Below are positions 1 to 23,153 of a stretch of DNA of 64,000 nucleotides, one piece after another. Both the position numbers and the translations under genes were made by a program. Within the stretch, counting starts at the first letter, position 1; each line of letters opens with the position of its first letter. The notes beneath the pieces are model-generated. The model ran no database searches, was not told where the DNA came from, and worked only from the letters and a program-made list of their open reading frames with translations. Source of the DNA: an uncultured Alphaproteobacteria bacterium (GTDB lineage Bacteria; Pseudomonadota; Alphaproteobacteria; HIMB59; GCA-002718135); the NCBI GenBank assembly GCA_902570155.1, contig CACFXU010000006.1, forward strand, positions 7,215-71,214, written 5' to 3'.

Positions 1-366
1 AGCCCTATTTCGATTACTACTTTTGCTACATTATTTGGAGCGATAATATCATTACCTTTTTTATTCTATGATTTTATTAATTATGAGAATAATATTAATA
101 ATATTTCTTTAATTTCTATTATTTATTTAGGTGTTTTTCCAACAGCTATTGCATTTCATATGCGCTATCATATAGTTAAACAATCTGGTCCGGTTTTCTT
201 GTCTTATGTTGCCTATTTAATTCCTGTTTTTGCATTAATATGGGGATTCATATTTCTTTCTGAACAAATAGTATTTAGTTCTGTAGTCGGAATTATTTTA
301 GTTTTTATTGGTCTGTTTGTTGGGCAAAAAAGATCAATGAGTAAAATATCCGTAAAAAACATATAA
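1..366 (+). CDS. EamA/DMT-family transporter, C-terminal part (5' end lies outside the window)
   Basis: Frame 1 is open from nt 1 with no stop before 366. The translation is hydrophobic (LGVFPTAIAFHMRYHIVKQSGPVFLSYVAYLIPVFALIWGFIFLSE), typical of the second EamA repeat. Confidence 0.7.
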   Translation, partial: SPISITTFATLFGAIISLPFLFYDFINYENNINNISLISIIYLGVFPTAIAFHMRYHIVKQSGPVFLSYVAYLIPVFALIWGFIFLSEQIVFSSVVGIILVFIGLFVGQKRSMSKISVKNI

Positions 367-464
367 TACTAATAAAACAGCAATAAAAATTGACACATTT
401 TTGAAGTTAAAGTATTTCATTTATGGTTGAAATTTAATTTTTTATAGTCCAATATACTTTTATT

Positions 465-1829
465 ATGAGCGACTCAATTAAATACTTACTTGAAGAAAAT
501 AAAGCACCAAAGTTTTGGTATAATATTAATGCAGACTTACCAAGTCCACCACCACCACCATTACACCCTGGAACTAAACAACCAGCTGGTCCTGATGACT
601 TTGCTCCTTTATTTCCAATGAGTTTAATTATGCAAGAAGTTTCTACCGAAAGAGAAATAGAAATTCCTGAGCCAGTAAGAGAAGTATACAAACAATGGAG
701 ACCTTCTCCTTTATTTAGGGCAAGAAGGTTAGAAAAGTTTTTAGATACACCAGCTAAAATTTATTACAAATATGAAGGTGTTAGTCCTACAGGAAGTCAC
801 AAACCAAATACTGCAGTTCCGCAAGCATTTTTTAATAAAGAAGAAGGAATTAGTAAAATTTTTACTGAAACGGGCGCAGGTCAGTGGGGAAGTTCACTAG
901 CTTTTGCAGGTCAGATCTTTGGTATAGATATAGAAGTTTTCATGGTTAAGGTTAGTTTTGATCATAAACCTTACAGAAAATTAATGATGCAATCGTTCGG
1001 TGCTAACTGTCATGCTAGTCCATCTAATTTAACTGACTTTGGTAACAAGTTATTATCAGAAAATCCTGATAACCCTGGTAGTTTGGGAATAGCTATATCA
1101 GAAGCAATAGAAGCAACTGTTAAAAGTGGAGGTAAAGCAAAATACTCACTTGGAAGTGTTTTAGGCCACGTTCTAATGCATCAAACTATAAATGGTAATG
1201 AAGCTATTATGCAAATGGAGATGGCTGGAGATTATCCTGATATTATTGTTGGCTGTACAGGTGGTGGTAGTAATCTTTCTGGATTAATGTTTCCATTTTT
1301 AGGACAACAGTTAAGAGGTGGTCAAAAAATTGATATAATTGGTTGCGAGCCTGCATCATGTCCTTCATTTACTAAGGGTAAGTATGCTTATGATCATGGT
1401 GATATGGCAAAAATGACTCCATTAATTAAAATGCATACTCTTGGATCTGATTTCTTACCGCCTGCTAATCACTCTGGTGGATTAAGATACCATGGCATGT
1501 CTTATCATTTAAGCCACTTATATGAGTTAGGTCTGATGAGAGCAAAGGCTTACGGTCAAAAAGAATGTTTTGAAGCTGGTTTAACCTTTGCAAAACAAGA
1601 AGGAATTATTCCTGCTCCAGAAGGAAACCATGCAATCAAAGGCGCTATTGATGCAGCTTTAGAATGTAAAGAAAATGGCGAGTCAAAAACTATTCTCTTT
1701 AATTTATGTGGTCATGGATATTTTGATATGTCAGCTTATGATGATTATCTAAATGGATCAATGGCTGATGATGTTATTGATGATGATGGAATAGGTAAAT
1801 CTATTTCTCAAATACCAGAAGTAGCGTAA
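465..1829 (+). CDS. trpB2: TrpB-like PLP-dependent enzyme, TrpB2 subfamily (tryptophan synthase beta chain 2)
   Basis: 454 aa. N-terminal TrpB2-type extension (FWYNINADLPSPPPPPLHPG), PLP-lysine motif GSHKPNTA (Lys codon at 801-803) and GGGSN loop. Confidence 0.85.
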   Translation: MSDSIKYLLEENKAPKFWYNINADLPSPPPPPLHPGTKQPAGPDDFAPLFPMSLIMQEVSTEREIEIPEPVREVYKQWRPSPLFRARRLEKFLDTPAKIYYKYEGVSPTGSHKPNTAVPQAFFNKEEGISKIFTETGAGQWGSSLAFAGQIFGIDIEVFMVKVSFDHKPYRKLMMQSFGANCHASPSNLTDFGNKLLSENPDNPGSLGIAISEAIEATVKSGGKAKYSLGSVLGHVLMHQTINGNEAIMQMEMAGDYPDIIVGCTGGGSNLSGLMFPFLGQQLRGGQKIDIIGCEPASCPSFTKGKYAYDHGDMAKMTPLIKMHTLGSDFLPPANHSGGLRYHGMSYHLSHLYELGLMRAKAYGQKECFEAGLTFAKQEGIIPAPEGNHAIKGAIDAALECKENGESKTILFNLCGHGYFDMSAYDDYLNGSMADDVIDDDGIGKSISQIPEVA

Positions 1830-1875
1830 TTTAAGTTTAAATTTTTTTTTATTTAATTAAAGGTGTTTCTTGATT

Positions 1876-3090
1876 ATGGTTGAAATTAAACCTTTTAAAG
1901 GAACACGTCCTTACAACGAAGATGCAAAAAATTTAATTGCTCCCTCTACTGATCATTTAAGTATTGAAAATATAGAAATATTTAAAAAAAATAATTATTG
2001 GAATTATTTAAAAATTTTGAATCCTGTTGGGCAATTAAAAGAAGCAGATACTCTCTTAGAAGCTAAATCACATTTTAATGAAATGAAAGAAAATGACGTA
2101 ATTAAAAAAGATAAAGAATTATTTTATTACATTTATCAAATTGAATTTAAAGGCCATACTCAACTTGGTTTTTTATCTCTTTCTAAAATATCAGATTTCG
2201 TAGAAGAAAAAATTAAAGCGCATGAAAAAATTTATGAAACAAGGATGAGAGAAAGAGCAGAGCAAATGTTAAATATAAAAACACAAATTGGTCCTATTTA
2301 TGTGGTATATAACAAAAACAATAAGATAAAAGATTTATTATCCTCTATAACATCAAATACTCCAGACTATGATTTTGAAAGTTTTGATAAATCTGTTCAT
2401 AAACTTTGGTGTGTCTCTGATGAATCTTTCATCAAAAAGCTATCTTCTTTGTTTTTAAATGAGGTAGATAATTTTTATATTGCTGATGGACATCATAGAA
2501 TGGGTGCAATGAAAATTATTGGTGAATTAAATTATAATAAAAATATTTTACAAGAAGATTTTATGATAGCGGCGTTTCCAAGTGATGAGGCTAAAATATT
2601 TGATTATAATAGAGTTGTTAAAGATTTAAATGGTTTGAGTGAAGAAAATTTTTTAGACATTCTTTCTGAAAACTTCGAAATAAAAAAAGAAAAAAATCCT
2701 TTCAAACCTCAATCTAATAAACAATTTGGAATGTATCATGAAAAAAATTGGTATTCATTACATTTTAAAACTGAATTAAAAACTGATAATTTTGTTGATA
2801 CGCTAGATATTAATATTTTAAATAATTTTATTTTCAAAAAACATTTAAATATATCTGATGTTAACAATGATGAAAGAATAAGATTTATTGCCGGATGTCA
2901 TGGTTTGGAAGCTTTAGAAAAAAAAGTTGATGAAAATAATGATAGTGTGGCATTTTCTATCTTCCCATCTTCAATAAGTGATGTTATTACAGTCGCGAAT
3001 AAAAATTTGACTATGCCCCCTAAATCAACATGGTTTGATCCAAAACCTTTAGACGGCTTAGTAGTTTATGAGTTTGAAAAAAATGTATGA
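1876..3090 (+). CDS. DUF1015 family protein (function unknown)
   Basis: Begins MVEIKPFKGTRP and contains the ADGHHR motif (2482-2499), both as I remember for DUF1015. I prefer the ATG at 1876 over the TTG at 1870 because an AAAGGTG Shine-Dalgarno-like motif sits at 1859-1865. Confidence 0.75.
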   Translation: MVEIKPFKGTRPYNEDAKNLIAPSTDHLSIENIEIFKKNNYWNYLKILNPVGQLKEADTLLEAKSHFNEMKENDVIKKDKELFYYIYQIEFKGHTQLGFLSLSKISDFVEEKIKAHEKIYETRMRERAEQMLNIKTQIGPIYVVYNKNNKIKDLLSSITSNTPDYDFESFDKSVHKLWCVSDESFIKKLSSLFLNEVDNFYIADGHHRMGAMKIIGELNYNKNILQEDFMIAAFPSDEAKIFDYNRVVKDLNGLSEENFLDILSENFEIKKEKNPFKPQSNKQFGMYHEKNWYSLHFKTELKTDNFVDTLDINILNNFIFKKHLNISDVNNDERIRFIAGCHGLEALEKKVDENNDSVAFSIFPSSISDVITVANKNLTMPPKSTWFDPKPLDGLVVYEFEKNV

Positions 3091-4250
3091 ATAAACCTAA
3101 TAGTAAACCTAACAATCCAAATTTTTCAAGTGGACCAACTTCAAAAAGACCAGGCTGGGAAATATCTGTTTTGAGTAATGCTTTAACTGGTAGGTCTCAC
3201 AGATCTGTTGAATGTAAAGCTAGATTAAAAGAAGCAATAGATAAATCTAAAGATATTCTTAAATTACCTGATGATTATTTATTGGGTATCATGCCTGGAT
3301 CAAACACAGGTGCTTTAGAAGCTGCTATGTGGTGCCTTTTAGGTAAAACAGGAGTCGATATTCTTGCATGGGAAAATTTTGGTAAAGATTGGGTAATCGA
3401 TGCAATCAGTGAATTAAAATTAGATAATTTAAATATTCATGAAGAAGATTATGGGAAACTACCTGACCTAAGCAAAGTCAATTTTGATAATGACGTTATT
3501 TTTACTTGGAATGGAACAACATCTGGTGTCAAAGTTCCAAATGGAGATTGGATACCTGATGACAGAAAAGGTCTAACAATTTGTGATGCAACTTCAGCAA
3601 TTTTTGGCATGCCTATAGATTATAATAAATGTGATGTTATAACTTGGTCTTGGCAAAAAATACTTGGAGGAGAGGCCGCTCATGGAATGATTGCAATTTC
3701 TCCACGCGTTGTTGAAAGATTAGAAAGTTTTACACCTAGCTGGCCAGTACCAAAATTATTTAGATTGGCTGAAAAACAAAAATTAATAAAAGGTATTTTT
3801 GAAGGAAATACAATTAACACACCATCAATGATATGTGTTGAGGATATTATTGATTCTTTAAACTGGGTTTCTTCTCAAGGAGGATTAAATTCATTAATCT
3901 CCAAATCTCAGAATTCTTTACAAAAAATCCGAGAATGGATTAATGAAAGAGATTGGGTTACTTTTTTATCTGAAATTGAAGATGAGAATTATATTTCAAA
4001 CACTGGGATAACTTTTAAAATTATTGAAGATTGGTTTACTAATAAAGATGAAAGTGGTCAAAGAGCTGTAATGGCTGACATTTGCAAATTACTCTCTGAT
4101 AATAATGTTGGATTTGATTGTAATGGATATCCAAAAGCGCCGCCTTCTTTTAGAATATGGGCTGGAGGCACGGTTCAAACTTCAGATGTAGAATTAGTTT
4201 TACCTTGGATAGATTGGGCCTATTCAGAGATTAAATCAAAACATGCCTAA
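3087..4250 (+). CDS. serC: Phosphoserine aminotransferase (alphaproteobacterial/archaeal-type SerC)
   Basis: 387 aa class-V aminotransferase fold (FSSGPTSKRPGW, GIMPGSNTGALEAAMW, SWQKILGGE with the PLP Lys). ATGA overlap with the upstream gene. Confidence 0.85.
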   Translation: MNKPNSKPNNPNFSSGPTSKRPGWEISVLSNALTGRSHRSVECKARLKEAIDKSKDILKLPDDYLLGIMPGSNTGALEAAMWCLLGKTGVDILAWENFGKDWVIDAISELKLDNLNIHEEDYGKLPDLSKVNFDNDVIFTWNGTTSGVKVPNGDWIPDDRKGLTICDATSAIFGMPIDYNKCDVITWSWQKILGGEAAHGMIAISPRVVERLESFTPSWPVPKLFRLAEKQKLIKGIFEGNTINTPSMICVEDIIDSLNWVSSQGGLNSLISKSQNSLQKIREWINERDWVTFLSEIEDENYISNTGITFKIIEDWFTNKDESGQRAVMADICKLLSDNNVGFDCNGYPKAPPSFRIWAGGTVQTSDVELVLPWIDWAYSEIKSKHA

Positions 4251-5181
4251 AGTACTAATATCAGATTCACTAGATAACATAGCATCTGAAATTTTAATAA
4301 AGAATAACATTTCAGTTGATACAAAAACAAACTTATCTCCTGAAGAATTAAAAAAAATAATTGATAACTATGATGGTTTAATCATTCGTTCTGCAACTAA
4401 AGTGCGAAATGATTTAATTGATTCTCTTTCAAATTTAAAAATTATAGGTAGGGCAGGGGCAGGAGTAGATAATGTTGATGTGGAAGCAGCTAAAAATAAA
4501 AATATTATCGTAATGAATACTCCAGGAGGAAATACAAATGCTACAGCAGAACACACAATTGGTTTAATTTTTGCATTACAAAGAAAAATTACTATTGCCA
4601 ATGAGACAACTCATAAGGGTCTTTGGGAAAAAAAGCAATTAAAAGGAAATGAAATTAAAGGCAAGAAAATTGGTATCTTAGGTTTTGGTAATGTAGGCAA
4701 AAGAGTTGCAGAAATATCAAATGTATTGGGAATGCACGTTTCAATATTTTCTTCATACTTTGAGACAATTAAGGATAACTATCCTGAATATAATTCTCGT
4801 TCTATCGATGAGATTATCAAAGAATCAGATATAATTTCTTTTCACTGTAAGCCCAACAAGGATGGAGGCCCGATTATTAATAAAAATCATCTATCACTAA
4901 TGAAAAAAAATTGTATTATTATCAATACCGCTAGAGGTAACTTAGTTGATGAAGATGATCTTAAAAATGCTCTAGAAAAAAAAGAAATCAAAGGTGCTGC
5001 ATTAGATGTTTTTAAAAATGAGCCTTTAGAAGAAAGTGGGTTTTATAATCTAGATAATATAATTTTAACTCCACATATTGCTGCTTCTACTGATGAAGCA
5101 CAAATAGTTGTAGCAGAAATGGTTGCTAACCAGTTTGTTGAATTTTTTAATAATAATAAAATTATAAATTCAGTTACTTAA
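4243..5181 (+). CDS. serA: D-3-phosphoglycerate dehydrogenase, short form without ACT domain (D-isomer 2-hydroxyacid dehydrogenase family)
   Basis: 312 aa. Rossmann motif GILGFGNVGKRVA, catalytic segment ARG...D and LTPHIAAST. Context directly after serC with an 8-nt overlap. Confidence 0.7.
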   Translation: MPKVLISDSLDNIASEILIKNNISVDTKTNLSPEELKKIIDNYDGLIIRSATKVRNDLIDSLSNLKIIGRAGAGVDNVDVEAAKNKNIIVMNTPGGNTNATAEHTIGLIFALQRKITIANETTHKGLWEKKQLKGNEIKGKKIGILGFGNVGKRVAEISNVLGMHVSIFSSYFETIKDNYPEYNSRSIDEIIKESDIISFHCKPNKDGGPIINKNHLSLMKKNCIIINTARGNLVDEDDLKNALEKKEIKGAALDVFKNEPLEESGFYNLDNIILTPHIAASTDEAQIVVAEMVANQFVEFFNNNKIINSVT

Positions 5182-7033
5182 TAAAAATTTCAGTTAAATT
5201 TTCTAAGTAAGCAGATGGATTTGAGAGAATATTACCATCTAATATATTAGCTTGATCTAAAATTAAATTTGAAGCTTTTTTATGGTCAATTTTTGTTAAA
5301 TTTTGAGATAAATTTACAATCATCGGATGGTTTGGATTAATTTCAAGTATCTTTTTTGAAACAGGAGTTTTTTGATTATGCATTTTCATTAGTTTTTCCA
5401 TATTTATATCCATCCCAGATTCTTCTGCAACAAGCAGAATTGGGCTTTTGGTTAATCTCTTAGATACAATAACATCAGATATAGTCTCTTTAAGCTCTGT
5501 TTTAAGTATGTTAATTAAATCATTGATTTTACTATCTATTTCTTTTTTATCTTCATCTTTCTTACTTGATTTTTCACCAACTTTTGAAACATCAACTTTA
5601 CCTTTGGTTATTGATTTAAATTCTAAATCTTTAAATTTATTTACATTTTGTATCCAAAACTCATCTACTGCATCAATCATAAACAAAACTGGTATCTTTT
5701 TATCAGTAAAAACTTCTAATTGAGGGGAGTTTTTAATATGATCTTTATCAGTATTAGCAAAATAATAAATTTCTTTTTGATCTTTAGCCATTAATTTAGT
5801 GTACTCTTCAAGAGATATTTTTTTATCATTTAAAGAATTTTCAAACCTCAATAGCGGTAAGATTTTTTCATGATGATCATTATGTTCGTATAACCCTTCT
5901 TTTAGTACAGGACCAAAATTATTCCAAAATGTTTCAAATTTATCCTTTTCTTTCTTAGCCAAGCTATCAATTTCACTTAAAATTTTATTTGTAATACCTT
6001 TTTTTATTTTTGTAATAATTGGATTATTTTGAAGCATTTCCCTACTTATATTTAGAGAAATATCTTGTGAGTCGACTACCCCTGGAATAAAACGTAACCA
6101 ATTAGGAATTATATCTTCACAATCATCAGTAATAAAAACTTTTTGAACATATAATTTTATTTTATTTTTCCTATCAGCATTGAATAAATCCATAGGTTGA
6201 TTTGTTGGAAAATACAGTAAAGCCTTATAACTAATAACACCCTCAGCATTATAATGAATAGTTTTTAAGGGATCATCAAAGTTAAATGAAATATTATTAT
6301 AAAATTGCTTATAGTCTTCCTCTTTTATATCTTTTTTATCTTTTAACCATAATGGACTACCTTCATTTATTTTTTCTTCTTTTTCTTTATCGTCAAGATC
6401 TTTAAGATAAATTGGGAAAGGAATATAATTTGAGTATTTTGTTATAATTGATCTTAAACGAAATGAATCTAAAAATTCATCAGCATCTTTCTTTATATTT
6501 AGTGTTATACAAGTGCCTCTTTTATCTTTTTTTGCATCTTCTATGGTATAATTTTCTTTTCCATTGGAAGACCAAAGATTTGTTTCTTCATTTTCAGCAT
6601 CTTTAGAAAGCACTTCAACATTGTCCGCAACCATATATGAGGAATAAAAACCAACACCAAACTGTCCAATTGCAGAAATATCATTACTTTTTTTATTTTT
6701 CATTGCTTCAATAAATTTACTAGTTCCTGATCTCGCTATAGTTCCTAAATTATCAATCAGTTCATTTTTAGACATTCCAATTCCATTATCTTCAATTTCT
6801 ATAATTTTTTTCTTTTTTGAAACTCTGATATTTATTTTTAAATCCTTTTCATCTTTTAGAAGATTTTTTTTGGAGAGTGATTGATATCTTAATTTTTCGC
6901 AGGCATCTGCAGAATTAGATATTAATTCTCTTAAAAATATTTCTCTTTCGCTATAAAGAGAATTAGCAACAAGATCTAAAAGCTTACTGACTTCAGCTTG
7001 AAATGTTAAATTTTCTTTAGTTTTTTCTGCCAT
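5174..7033 (-). CDS. htpG: Molecular chaperone HtpG (Hsp90)
   Basis: 619 aa. N-terminal GHKL ATPase motifs (LRELISNSADA, DNGIGM, IGQFGVGFYS). Confidence 0.95.
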   Translation of the reverse strand: MAEKTKENLTFQAEVSKLLDLVANSLYSEREIFLRELISNSADACEKLRYQSLSKKNLLKDEKDLKINIRVSKKKKIIEIEDNGIGMSKNELIDNLGTIARSGTSKFIEAMKNKKSNDISAIGQFGVGFYSSYMVADNVEVLSKDAENEETNLWSSNGKENYTIEDAKKDKRGTCITLNIKKDADEFLDSFRLRSIITKYSNYIPFPIYLKDLDDKEKEEKINEGSPLWLKDKKDIKEEDYKQFYNNISFNFDDPLKTIHYNAEGVISYKALLYFPTNQPMDLFNADRKNKIKLYVQKVFITDDCEDIIPNWLRFIPGVVDSQDISLNISREMLQNNPIITKIKKGITNKILSEIDSLAKKEKDKFETFWNNFGPVLKEGLYEHNDHHEKILPLLRFENSLNDKKISLEEYTKLMAKDQKEIYYFANTDKDHIKNSPQLEVFTDKKIPVLFMIDAVDEFWIQNVNKFKDLEFKSITKGKVDVSKVGEKSSKKDEDKKEIDSKINDLINILKTELKETISDVIVSKRLTKSPILLVAEESGMDINMEKLMKMHNQKTPVSKKILEINPNHPMIVNLSQNLTKIDHKKASNLILDQANILDGNILSNPSAYLENLTEIFIK

Positions 7034-7116
7034 TTTTGAAATTTAAGCATTCATATCTATAATTCAATAGTAAGCAATAATTTTTTGCCATATTTAAGAC
7101 TATATAAGTAAAAGTT

Positions 7117-7749
7117 ATGGTATTCAGATTTATAATGAAATTTGATAATTTTTTTAAATTATTATATATTGCGTTGTTATTTTTATATGCATGCACTTCA
7201 AATCAGTTAACAAATACTGCTGATAGTTGCATAATTTTTGATGAAAAGAAAAGCTGGTATAAAGCAACTAAAAATTCTTATGACAAATGGAATACCCCAA
7301 TTGCGTTCCAATTAGCAGTTATAAAACAAGAATCATCTTTTACTCAATTTGCAAAACCAAAAAGAAAAAAATTTTTGGGTTTTATACCAACATCTAGACC
7401 ATCAACTGCTTTTGGTTATGCACAAATAACAAATCCTACATGGGATTGGTATAAGAATAAAACTGGAAATCAAAATGCATCAAGGGCAAATTTTAAAGAT
7501 GTAACTGATTTTATTGGATGGTACACAACGCAGTCTGAAAATATGATTGGAATTTCAAAAAATGATTACTATAATCAATATTTAGCATACCATGAAGGTC
7601 AAAACGGATGGTCGAAAGAGTCATTTAAAAGTAAAGATTGGTTGATTGATGTTGCTAAAAATGTAGAAAGAAATACTAAGATGTTTAATAAACAACTAAA
7701 ACAATGCGAAGAAAAACTAAATAAAAAAGGTTTCTTCGGAATACTATAA
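7117..7749 (+). CDS. Putative lipoprotein with lytic-transglycosylase-like (SLT-like) core
   Basis: Signal peptide with a lipobox-like LYAC. VIKQESSF (candidate catalytic Glu-Ser), FGYAQIT and YLAYHEG resemble SLT motifs. An alternative start ATG lies at 7135. Confidence 0.5.
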   Translation: MVFRFIMKFDNFFKLLYIALLFLYACTSNQLTNTADSCIIFDEKKSWYKATKNSYDKWNTPIAFQLAVIKQESSFTQFAKPKRKKFLGFIPTSRPSTAFGYAQITNPTWDWYKNKTGNQNASRANFKDVTDFIGWYTTQSENMIGISKNDYYNQYLAYHEGQNGWSKESFKSKDWLIDVAKNVERNTKMFNKQLKQCEEKLNKKGFFGIL

Positions 7750-8927
7750 TGCCAATTTTAAACAGCATAAATCAAATGCAAGGTCAGATGACAGAATGGC
7801 GTCAGGATTTACATAAAATTCCTGAGATAGGCCTTCAAGAATTTGAAACATCAAAATATATCAAAAATAAGTTAAGTGAATTTAATATTAAATTTAAAGA
7901 TGGTTACGCTAATACAGGTGTTGTGGCTTGGGTAGATGGTAATGAGGTTACTAATGATAAGACAATTGGTTTAAGAGCAGATTTTGACGCTCTTCCTATG
8001 CCAGAACAAAATGAATTTAATCATAAATCTAAAAATAAAGGTATGATGCATGGTTGTGGTCACGATGGTCATACCACAATGCTTCTTGGAGCAGCGAAAT
8101 ATCTAAGTGAAAATAATAATTTTGATGGAAGAGTATATTTTATTTTTCAACCAGGAGAAGAGGGTTTTGCTGGAGGAGAAAAAATGATTCAAGATGGTAT
8201 GTTTAATGATTTTAAAATTGATGAAGTGTATGCACTTCATAATTGGCCTGAGTTACCTCTAGGTACGTTTGGTGTAAATAGTGGGCCAATGATGGCAGCA
8301 GTTGATGAGTTTGATATTACTGTAAAAGGTAAGGGTGGTCATGCTGCATCACCTCATCTAGCAATTGATCCCGTAGTGATTTCTGCACAAGTTATTTCTG
8401 CTGTTCAAACAATTATAAGTAGATCCACAGATCCTGTTGATAAAGCTCTTATAAGTATTACAAAAATTAATGCTGGCACAGCGTATAATGTAATTGACGA
8501 TCAAGTTAAAATGGGTGGGACCATTAGAACTTTTAGAAGAGAAACACGAGCATATATAGAGAAAAGATTAAATGAATTATGTAAAGGTATAGCCGATGCA
8601 CATGGCGCAGAAATAAAAATTGAGTTTGATTTAGTAAATAAATATCCACCTACTATTAATTCTAAAGAAGAAACAAAATTTGCTGCAAATGTAGCTAAAG
8701 ATTTAGTCGGTGATGATAAAGTTATTACTGATATTGACCCGTCAATGGGAGGAGAAGATTTTTCATATTTGTTAGAAAAAAAACCTGGTTCTTATCTTTA
8801 TCTTGGTCAAGGAGATGCAGAACATAGCGCTCATTTACATACAACAAAGTATGATTTTAATGATAATTTATTACCTATTGGTGTAAATTTTTGGGTGGAT
8901 CTTGTTCAAAAATACTTTTCTAAGTAA
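7749..8927 (+). CDS. M20-family amidohydrolase (hippurate hydrolase / N-acyl-amino-acid amidohydrolase type)
   Basis: 392 aa. MHGCGHDGH, GEEGFAGG and GGEDFSY motifs of the M20D group. Confidence 0.85.
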   Translation: MPILNSINQMQGQMTEWRQDLHKIPEIGLQEFETSKYIKNKLSEFNIKFKDGYANTGVVAWVDGNEVTNDKTIGLRADFDALPMPEQNEFNHKSKNKGMMHGCGHDGHTTMLLGAAKYLSENNNFDGRVYFIFQPGEEGFAGGEKMIQDGMFNDFKIDEVYALHNWPELPLGTFGVNSGPMMAAVDEFDITVKGKGGHAASPHLAIDPVVISAQVISAVQTIISRSTDPVDKALISITKINAGTAYNVIDDQVKMGGTIRTFRRETRAYIEKRLNELCKGIADAHGAEIKIEFDLVNKYPPTINSKEETKFAANVAKDLVGDDKVITDIDPSMGGEDFSYLLEKKPGSYLYLGQGDAEHSAHLHTTKYDFNDNLLPIGVNFWVDLVQKYFSK

Positions 8928-8933
8928 TCTTAA

Positions 8934-9698
8934 TTGATGTTAAATTTTAGTGCGATTTATTCAATAATCGCATTTAGAATAAAAGAATTTCTACAAGAGT
9001 ATCATTATTCTTTATTAGCCCCCGTAACTACAAATCTTCTATTTATATTAGTTTTTATAACAGTAGAAAATTATTACTCACTTTCTATGGATTCAGGTTC
9101 TTTCGTTGAATTTATTGCTCCTGGATTAATCATTATGATTGTTGCTCAGGAAAGTTACGATAATTCGTCTGCTACTTTAATTCATATGAAACAAATTGGT
9201 TCTTTAGATGATTGGTTAATGGCACCTATCTATAGGATTGAAATATTAATATCGTTAATATTCACATCTCTTATTATTGGAATTATTTTAGCACTGTTTA
9301 ATTTTTTTATATTTACTTTTTTAATAGATATTGAAATTTATAATTTTTTTTATTTTTTTTACTACTTATTTTTAGTTATAATATTTTTCTCATGTTTAGG
9401 ATGTTTCGTAGGAATAATTTTTAATTCATGGGATTCACAAAGTACATTCTCGAGCTTTTTTGTTGCGCCAATTAATTTTTTATCCGGAACCTTTTTTTCA
9501 ATAAATTATCTTCCTGATAATTTGAAGGCTATACTTTTATATAATCCTTACTATTATGTTGTAAGCTTTTTTAGGAATTCATTTAATAATGAATTTTCAT
9601 TTAATTTACTTGAAAATATCTTTATAATATTTTTTATTTTATTAACTTTGATTATTACATCATTTATTTTTTTTAAAGGTTTTAAAATTATTAAATGA
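8934..9698 (+). CDS. ABC-2 type transporter permease (no cognate ATPase adjacent)
   Basis: 254 aa with 6 predicted TM segments and a YadH/NodJ-like layout. TTG at 8934 is followed by ATG at 8937; either could be the start. Confidence 0.65.
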   Translation: MMLNFSAIYSIIAFRIKEFLQEYHYSLLAPVTTNLLFILVFITVENYYSLSMDSGSFVEFIAPGLIIMIVAQESYDNSSATLIHMKQIGSLDDWLMAPIYRIEILISLIFTSLIIGIILALFNFFIFTFLIDIEIYNFFYFFYYLFLVIIFFSCLGCFVGIIFNSWDSQSTFSSFFVAPINFLSGTFFSINYLPDNLKAILLYNPYYYVVSFFRNSFNNEFSFNLLENIFIIFFILLTLIITSFIFFKGFKIIK

Positions 9699-22589: not shown

Positions 22590-23153
22590 ATGAAATTATA
22601 TCTTATTAGACATGCAGAGTCAGAAGCCAATGCAGCATCAGATTTAGATAATCCAACTTATTATTATGATGCAAGAATTACTCAAAGAGGAATTGAGCAA
22701 GCAAAAAAATTAAATAATAGAATTAAAAATCTCAAATTTGATAATTATTTTTGTTCCCCCTTAACAAGAACATTGGAAACATTCTCTATTGTTTTTCCAT
22801 CTAATAAACCTGTAATTGAACCATTAATAAGAGAACATTTGTATCACTCATGTGATGTAGGAAGACAACCAAAAAAATTAAAAAAAGAATTTAATGATTT
22901 TGATTTTAATAATTTAAATGATTTTTGGTGGAATAATAACAAACCCATAAATGAAAAAAAAATTATACAAGAGTCTCACAATGATATTAAAATGAGATTA
23001 AGGTCTTTTCTGCTATCTATCAAAAAACTTAATTTACAAAAAATTGTATTGGTCAGTCATGGTACATTCTTAAGTCAAATAACTGAATATATGCTGGATA
23101 ACTGTGAGGTATATGATTGTGAGTACAACGAGGTATATGAAAAATTTTTTTAA
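22590..23153 (+). CDS. Histidine phosphatase family protein (phosphoglycerate mutase/CobC-like superfamily)
   Basis: 187 aa. LIRHAESEAN (the RHG-type motif), SPLTRTLET and VSHGTFL. Confidence 0.8.
   Translation: MKLYLIRHAESEANAASDLDNPTYYYDARITQRGIEQAKKLNNRIKNLKFDNYFCSPLTRTLETFSIVFPSNKPVIEPLIREHLYHSCDVGRQPKKLKKEFNDFDFNNLNDFWWNNNKPINEKKIIQESHNDIKMRLRSFLLSIKKLNLQKIVLVSHGTFLSQITEYMLDNCEVYDCEYNEVYEKFF

Follow-up and report, generated by a model that had tools for sequence, protein, structure and literature searches.

The DUF1015 protein encoded in the serA-serC operon of C. difficile was proposed to be the missing phosphoserine phosphatase (Hofmann et al., 2018, as cited in PMC13759103). The family has since been named SerBK by Price et al. 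in the GapMind study (2026, PLoS Genet, PMC13759103; bioRxiv 10.1101/2024.10.14.618325), in which CBO1128 of C. botulinum allowed an E. coli serB::kan strain to grow on minimal medium, SerB was missing from 47 of the 50 genomes having close homologues near serA, and BT1151 of B. thetaiotaomicron was required for the use of serine as nitrogen source. The nearest predicted fold of SerBK is that of the serine kinase SbnI, and AlphaFold3 placed ATP in a confident pose (ipTM 0.91); the chemistry was left open by the authors since the reverse kinase reaction is unfavourable, with Keq about 4e-4 (PMC13759103). Here we analyzed a 64,000-nt stretch of contig CACFXU010000006.1 (hereafter the window) from the genome of an uncultured alphaproteobacterium (GCA_902570155.1), in which a DUF1015 gene is located at positions 1876..3090 of the + strand, between trpB2 and serC.

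The window gene encodes a divergent member of SerBK, in which a ParB/sulfiredoxin-type fold of the SerK/SbnI kind is extended by about 170 residues, and which probably acts on serine and O-phosphoserine (OPS) in place of SerB. The initial annotation of the window had placed this DUF1015 gene at the phosphoserine node and suggested a non-canonical phosphoserine phosphatase or transferase. This link is correct but is in the literature already: the idea matches SerBK and the rescue of serB::kan by CBO1128 (PMC13759103), and the function since characterized for the family is related to the one suggested. Our additions are modest, namely a divergent marine lineage with likely serine self-sufficiency, an anticorrelation with SerB that reaches beyond the serA-linked copies, and an association with TrpB2.

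Conserved residues and predicted fold of the DUF1015 protein

The window protein matches PF06245 (DUF1015) over residues 4-311 and profile positions 1-323 of 325 (E 1.8e-67; 228 bits against a cut-off of 25.8), and its gene is present as a single copy in the genome. An NCBIfam scan assigned no family to the protein, hence no match to the SerB model TIGR00338. We aligned 130 cluster representatives with 28-63% identity to the query (alignment A1); H116, E117, D204, G205, H207, R208, K383, T385, P389 and K390 do not vary in it, while A203 and H206 are conserved in at least 90%. Likewise, H116, E117, D-G-H-H-R, R246 and MPPK(S)TW..PK are invariant in all 107 homologues annotated for gene context, irrespective of that context, and the window protein carries every family-invariant residue. 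H116-E117 is encoded at 2221..2226 (+) and the C-terminal motif M380-P-P-K-S-T-W...P389-K390 at 3013..3045 (+), of which M380, P381, K383, T385, W386, P389 and K390 are the invariant positions. The motif A203-D-G-H-H-R208, encoded by GCTGATGGACATCATAGA, lies at 2482..2499 (+), where the initial annotation had described it as invariant-looking; this description holds for D-G-H-H-R in 107/107. Two residues past H116-E117, 14 of the 107 homologues have isoleucine in place of the near-invariant T119 (codon 2230-2232). This substitution occurs in every inspected member of the window's order, in both of its families, and is seemingly a lineage-specific change near the putative active site.

A structure prediction had been suggested as a check on the pocket. 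The AlphaFold2 model built from A1 is of high confidence (pLDDT 95.2, pTM 0.92), and a Foldseek search against the PDB at E ≤1e-5 returned only SerK (5x0k, 2.6e-8), its P. furiosus homologue 1VK1, and SbnI. In VIA-align comparisons these proteins scored Z 11.4-13.4, with 227 of 241 residues aligned to SerK (5x0b, Z 13.4) and Z 12.3 for SbnI (5uje). All others were at or below 5.2, the next best being sulfiredoxin (Z 5.2) and ParB/Noc (Z 4.5-4.8). The whole two-domain SerK/SbnI architecture is contained in residues ~82-402 of the DUF1015 protein, which has ~170 residues extra. At the sequence level, phmmer found no match among PDB sequences at E up to 1, and a profile search against the PDB gave only non-significant matches, among them 1VK1 (E 0.19), whose alignment pairs YIADGHHR with LIVDGHHR and MPPKST with FSPKTT. 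A weak match to DndB (E 6e-4, below cut-off) reflects only the shared ParB-type DGxHR region, and a DNA-sulfur function was rejected.

In the ParB-CTPase fold, nucleotide phosphates are bound at Box II, the GxxR P motif (PMC12704722). ADGHHR is the equivalent nucleotide-phosphate loop of this ParB/Srx-type fold, and E117 may correspond to E30, the catalytic glutamate of SerK. In the same fold, the nucleotide-phosphate pocket might have been re-used for OPS, so that the protein would be a true hydrolase, a phosphoserine phosphatase freeing phosphate without a nucleotide acceptor. This is the function originally proposed by Hofmann et al., 2018, as relayed in PMC13759103; it would remove the thermodynamic problem of Price et al. 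and agrees with the anticorrelation with SerB described below, and hydrolysis of phosphoanhydrides is known for ParB-fold proteins (PMC12704722). However, the GxxR P motif and the other residues are retained exactly as in the kinases, and Price et al. describe both a confident AlphaFold3 ATP pose (ipTM 0.91) and a serine-utilization phenotype for which a phosphatase would not account (PMC13759103). We therefore consider a hydrolase quite unlikely.

DUF1015 and SerB rarely occur together

In the window genome (1.495 Mb in 47 contigs, 88.9% complete), neither TIGR00338 nor PF12710 had a match. The genome encodes 11 unassigned or generic proteins of phosphatase families, five of the HAD, three of the histidine-phosphatase and three of the IMPase type, none of which reaches a phosphoserine phosphatase cut-off; the scores for PspA were 78 and 51 bits against 350. 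One protein of the histidine-phosphatase family is encoded in the window itself (22590-23153, 187 aa); its best NCBIfam scores of 50-54 bits are far below the cut-offs, which makes it a weak alternative phosphatase candidate.

The initial annotation had proposed anticorrelation with serB as a check, and the two genes do anticorrelate. In the window's own order, 119 of 147 genomes encode DUF1015 and only two encode SerB above the cut-off; among the 22 high-quality genomes of the order, these numbers are 22 and zero. Four of 80 diverse DUF1015 genomes, all from Bacteroidales or Bacteroidia, have SerB above the cut-off. We then counted both genes in 251 Pseudomonadota genomes: SerB is present in 15 and absent from 38 of those with DUF1015, and present in 178 and absent from 20 of those without it. 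The odds ratio is 0.044, with the reservation that relatives are not independent, and the genomes with DUF1015 but without SerB come from 13 families. The published anticorrelation is thereby extended to proteobacteria whose DUF1015 does not adjoin serA. All 15 genomes with both genes belong to one proteobacterial family with genomes of 2-2.5 Mb, and no other group of the phylum sample has both. Six of the 15 (G235, G243, G251, G271, G351 and G385) carry serB within a few kb of DUF1015; at the one locus annotated, in G235, the two genes (L148, 7924-10799; SerB 232 bits) are convergent, with a 149-aa open reading frame (ORF) between them, and lie beside mfd.

A different division of labor is conceivable, in which the DUF1015 protein binds nucleotides and regulates or scaffolds SerA/SerC, and a HAD, histidine-phosphatase or IMPase protein dephosphorylates OPS. 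Many proteins with a ParB fold act as switches and not as enzymes (PMC12704722), the genome offers the 11 phosphatase-family proteins listed above, and an IMPase-type phosphoserine phosphatase is known from Rhodanobacter. Against this, a lone DUF1015 gene rescued E. coli serB::kan without partner genes (PMC13759103), the candidate catalytic residues are invariant in the 107 homologues, and the phosphatase candidates are neither linked with serA/serC nor at the cut-off of any phosphoserine phosphatase model. A purely regulatory role is thus highly improbable.

The DUF1015-serC-serA cluster and its conservation

To place the gene among its neighbors, we took one genome per species and inspected 80 DUF1015 loci with 8-kb flanks from Pseudomonadota, Bacillota, Bacteroidota, Acidobacteriota, Gemmatimonadota, Myxococcota, Elusimicrobiota and others. 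At 30 of the 80 loci at least one of serA and serC is found within 8 kb of DUF1015, and at 20 both are, while any one single-copy gene is expected at ~0.5 of 80. This enrichment bears out the conserved functional link to the phosphoserine node that had been postulated from the window, and the placement of DUF1015 genes beside serA/serC in other phyla was confirmed as well, with such loci in Bacteroidota, Bacillota, Gemmatimonadota and Elusimicrobiota. The remaining recurrent neighbors (EAL/GGDEF, TPR, RelA/SpoT, miaA, glgB and DegP) are lineage-specific; within the 80 loci no further neighbor family is common beyond single lineages, and no alternative functional link emerged. In a FastTree phylogeny of the 107 homologues, copies linked to serA/serC are found mainly in a clade of Bacillota and Bacteroidota and in the window's order, and the large proteobacterial clade is mostly without serA/serC neighbors.

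Rare long proteins join DUF1015 to other domains. Two are fusions with a SerA-type 2-hydroxyacid dehydrogenase (P0273 and P0275), and in two more (P0271 and P0272) the partner is acetate kinase or a Glu/Leu/Phe/Val dehydrogenase. These four are single-member clusters and possible artefacts of gene calling or assembly, and their support is weak.

In the window, four close-packed genes on the + strand, trpB2, DUF1015, serC and a short serA, are followed by a convergent htpG. The first gene, trpB2 (465..1829), encodes a TrpB-like pyridoxal phosphate (PLP) enzyme that exceeds the cut-offs of both NF009057 (701.7 bits) and TIGR01415 (608.6 bits). A gap of 46 nt without a terminator-like site separates it from DUF1015, and a Shine-Dalgarno-like AAAGGTG (1861..1867, +) can be read 8 nt 5′ of the DUF1015 ATG at 1876. 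TTG at 1870 is an alternative start for this ORF. The coordinates given by the initial annotation are correct, but the protein has 404 residues rather than 405, the latter number counting the stop codon (3088-3090). The reported ATGA overlap at 3087-3090 can likewise be read in the sequence, and its 4 nt comprise the DUF1015 stop codon and the start of serC.

The serC gene (3087..4250, +) encodes a phosphoserine transaminase of the serC_2 type, scoring 585.3 bits with NF002841 and 520.3 bits with TIGR01365, both above the cut-off, which places DUF1015 between trpB2 and serC as annotated. Against the E. coli-type model this protein scores just 64 bits. The serA-like gene (4243..5181, +) overlaps serC by 8 nt and encodes a short D-3-phosphoglycerate dehydrogenase of 312 aa with PF02826 and PF00389 but no ACT/ASB domain. 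It scores 322 bits with TIGR01327, over model positions 1-308 of 525, and falls below the cut-off because the C-terminal half is absent. The 3′ end of this short serA overlaps the convergent htpG by 8 nt, and the short form is kept across the order.

DUF1015, serC and serA are translationally coupled. A terminator scan found none within the cluster, a promoter scan gave no information, with 44 sites where 42.7 were expected, and an Rfam search of positions 1-9000 gave zero matches, hence no riboswitch. Six seawater metatranscriptome runs contain 40-44% of the sampled words of the stretch, and contigs from RNA libraries cover all four genes in four runs from four studies. Each of these four runs has one contig across the trpB2-DUF1015 gap, and one of the runs has a contig across serC-serA. 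Among the contigs listed, none spans the DUF1015-serC junction, and X15 has zero depth over 2523-3035, which is not probative for contigs. The RNA contigs are compatible with co-transcription of the cluster, short of proof.

TrpB2 and the direction of the reaction

TrpB2 enzymes are reported to be tryptophan synthases that depend on OPS (Busch et al., 2014, as cited in PMC11917138). The window genome carries a canonical trpB-trpA pair elsewhere; TrpB2 is therefore an extra enzyme. In the window's family, trpB2 is directly upstream of DUF1015 in 9/9 examined genomes. It is not adjacent in the sister family, where it lies 137 kb off in one genome (G002). In an unrelated Rhodospirillaceae metagenome-assembled genome (L078), trpB2 is again directly upstream of DUF1015. 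We scored TrpB2 presence by TIGR01415. Among the 251 Pseudomonadota genomes, TrpB2 occurs in 25 of the 53 with DUF1015 (47%) and in 8 of the 198 without it (4%), an odds ratio of 21; counted by families, the numbers are 7 of 14 and 7 of 57 (p 0.004). TrpB2 is also present in 26 of the 80 diverse DUF1015 genomes and in 22/22 high-quality genomes of the window's order. The DUF1015 holders among the named controls (B. thetaiotaomicron, T. maritima and M. acetivorans) are all among the four controls with TrpB2. We found no mention of this association in the literature that we examined.

The association bears on the direction in which the enzyme works. Were the protein chiefly a kinase, imported serine would be converted to OPS for TrpB2 (indole + OPS -> tryptophan) and, via reversed SerC and SerA, to 3-phosphoglycerate. 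The cluster would then be a module for serine assimilation and OPS supply, and the cell would obtain its serine from uptake or from glycine via GlyA. The closest folds are indeed kinases that make OPS from serine, and SerK of T. kodakarensis serves serine assimilation. BT1151 is needed to use serine nitrogen, and thermodynamics favour the kinase direction (PMC13759103). Moreover, the window SerA is without the ACT domain that feedback-controlled biosynthetic enzymes typically carry, and trpB2, whose product co-occurs with DUF1015, heads the cluster. In contrast, the anticorrelation with SerB and the rescue of serB::kan by CBO1128 indicate that OPS is converted to serine in vivo, and a search of the window genome, which was not exhaustive, turned up no alternative way from central carbon to serine. 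The two directions can also coexist. On balance, a protein that is chiefly a kinase appears rather unlikely.

It is possible, if speculative, that OPS is a standing metabolic hub in SerBK organisms and that a reversible serine kinase maintains a pool for OPS users, above all TrpB2. Such a hub would account for the co-occurrence of TrpB2 with DUF1015, for the presence of TrpB2 in every named control with DUF1015, and for an adjacency that arose at least twice. If this were true, trpB2-serBK-serC-serA of the AEGEAN-169/HIMB59 clade would be an OPS operon, and an abundant marine group would be self-sufficient in serine, unlike Pelagibacter.

Divergence within a marine order

The window's order is most likely HIMB59/AEGEAN-169, also called 'SAR11 subclade V'. 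The closest proteins carry the names Pelagibacteraceae or Alphaproteobacteria and come from marine samples. The order DUF1015-serC-serA is kept in 14/14 examined relatives from eight genera and both families of the order. Between these two families, DUF1015 is only 30% identical, compared with 57% for serC and 48% for serA. The FastTree phylogeny places the window's family in a clade of its own, outside that of Bacillota and Bacteroidota; the branch of the sister family is very long. Identities between the window protein and the serA/serC-linked members from Bacillota and Bacteroidota, taken as a proxy for the experimentally tested proteins, are 33-37%. Within the window's family (L034-L047), identities are 44-70% for DUF1015, 78-88% for trpB2, 60-66% for serC and 64-80% for htpG; DUF1015 diverges much faster than trpB2 and somewhat faster than serC and htpG.

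A published gene table scored HIMB59 with serA but without serB and serC (PMC5069961). The serC_2 type of the gene may be a reason why serC is missing from that table. A comparative-genomics paper on AEGEAN-169 makes no mention of serine, glycine or tryptophan.

Discussion

Taken together, the window protein most likely shares the serB-replacing role of the clostridial member; we infer both this role and the chemistry of the step. In the mechanism that we propose, SerA and SerC would form OPS from 3-phosphoglycerate in an organism devoid of SerB, and the DUF1015 protein would turn OPS into serine, most likely by nucleotide-dependent phosphotransfer in reverse. The protein could also run forward, from serine to OPS. 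The cluster would be centred on OPS, because DUF1015-serC-serA sit behind trpB2, the gene for an enzyme reported to use OPS.

Several points weigh against this replacement of SerB. The window clade lies outside the Bacillota/Bacteroidota clade that is expected to hold the tested proteins, from whose serA/serC-linked members it is separated by identities of 33-37%. Run in reverse, the kinase reaction is disfavoured thermodynamically (Keq about 4e-4; PMC13759103). The genome is only 88.9% complete, and the five HAD, three histidine-phosphatase and three IMPase proteins might hide a promiscuous phosphoserine phosphatase, although none is at the SerB or PspA cut-offs. Finally, one proteobacterial family has DUF1015 together with an adjacent SerB, and DUF1015 is not always a SerB replacement.

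Pathway tools score SerB-less genomes as unable to complete serine synthesis. The presence of DUF1015-serC-serA in 22/22 high-quality genomes of the order implies instead a complete phosphorylated serine pathway. Such a pathway would contrast metabolically with the genus Pelagibacter, which is described as reliant on external glycine or serine. The association with TrpB2 offers a handle on why a kinase-like enzyme occupies the OPS step.

SerB (TIGR00338) and the window protein apparently have the step from OPS to serine in common, and the two families are nearly mutually exclusive across genomes. SerB is a HAD Rossmannoid hydrolase that works through an aspartyl-phosphate intermediate, whereas DUF1015 has the ParB/Srx fold, and no homology between them was detected. 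The SerB gap is also filled by PspA, of the histidine-phosphatase type (NF045917), and by the IMPase-type enzyme of Rhodanobacter, whose folds are unrelated; the members of these superfamilies in the window genome are far below the PspA cut-off and unlinked to serA/serC.

With SerK of T. kodakarensis (5X0B) and SbnI of Staphylococcus (5UJE, 6NR6), the window protein shares the two-domain ParB/Srx fold, with 213-227 of ~240 residues aligned, as well as DGHHR (the GxxR P motif), the PK(S/T)T-type C-terminal motif and, probably, the substrate pair of serine and OPS. The identity is only 12-16%, without a significant sequence match, and DUF1015 is ~170 residues longer owing to an N-terminal extension and insertions. 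SerK and SbnI act towards OPS and are not known as substitutes for SerB.

The closest relationship is to SerBK itself, represented by CDIF630erm_01132 of C. difficile, CBO1128 and BT1151. The window protein belongs to the same Pfam family and has the same invariant motifs and SerK/SbnI-like predicted fold, and its gene is likewise clustered with serA and serC in a genome without SerB. The window copy differs in forming a separate, divergent lineage of the tree and in gene order, which is DUF1015-serC-serA here but has DUF1015 after serA in B. thetaiotaomicron and in the majority of the Bacillota and Bacteroidota loci that we inspected. It is further distinguished by a serC of the serC_2 type, a short serA, and trpB2 directly upstream.

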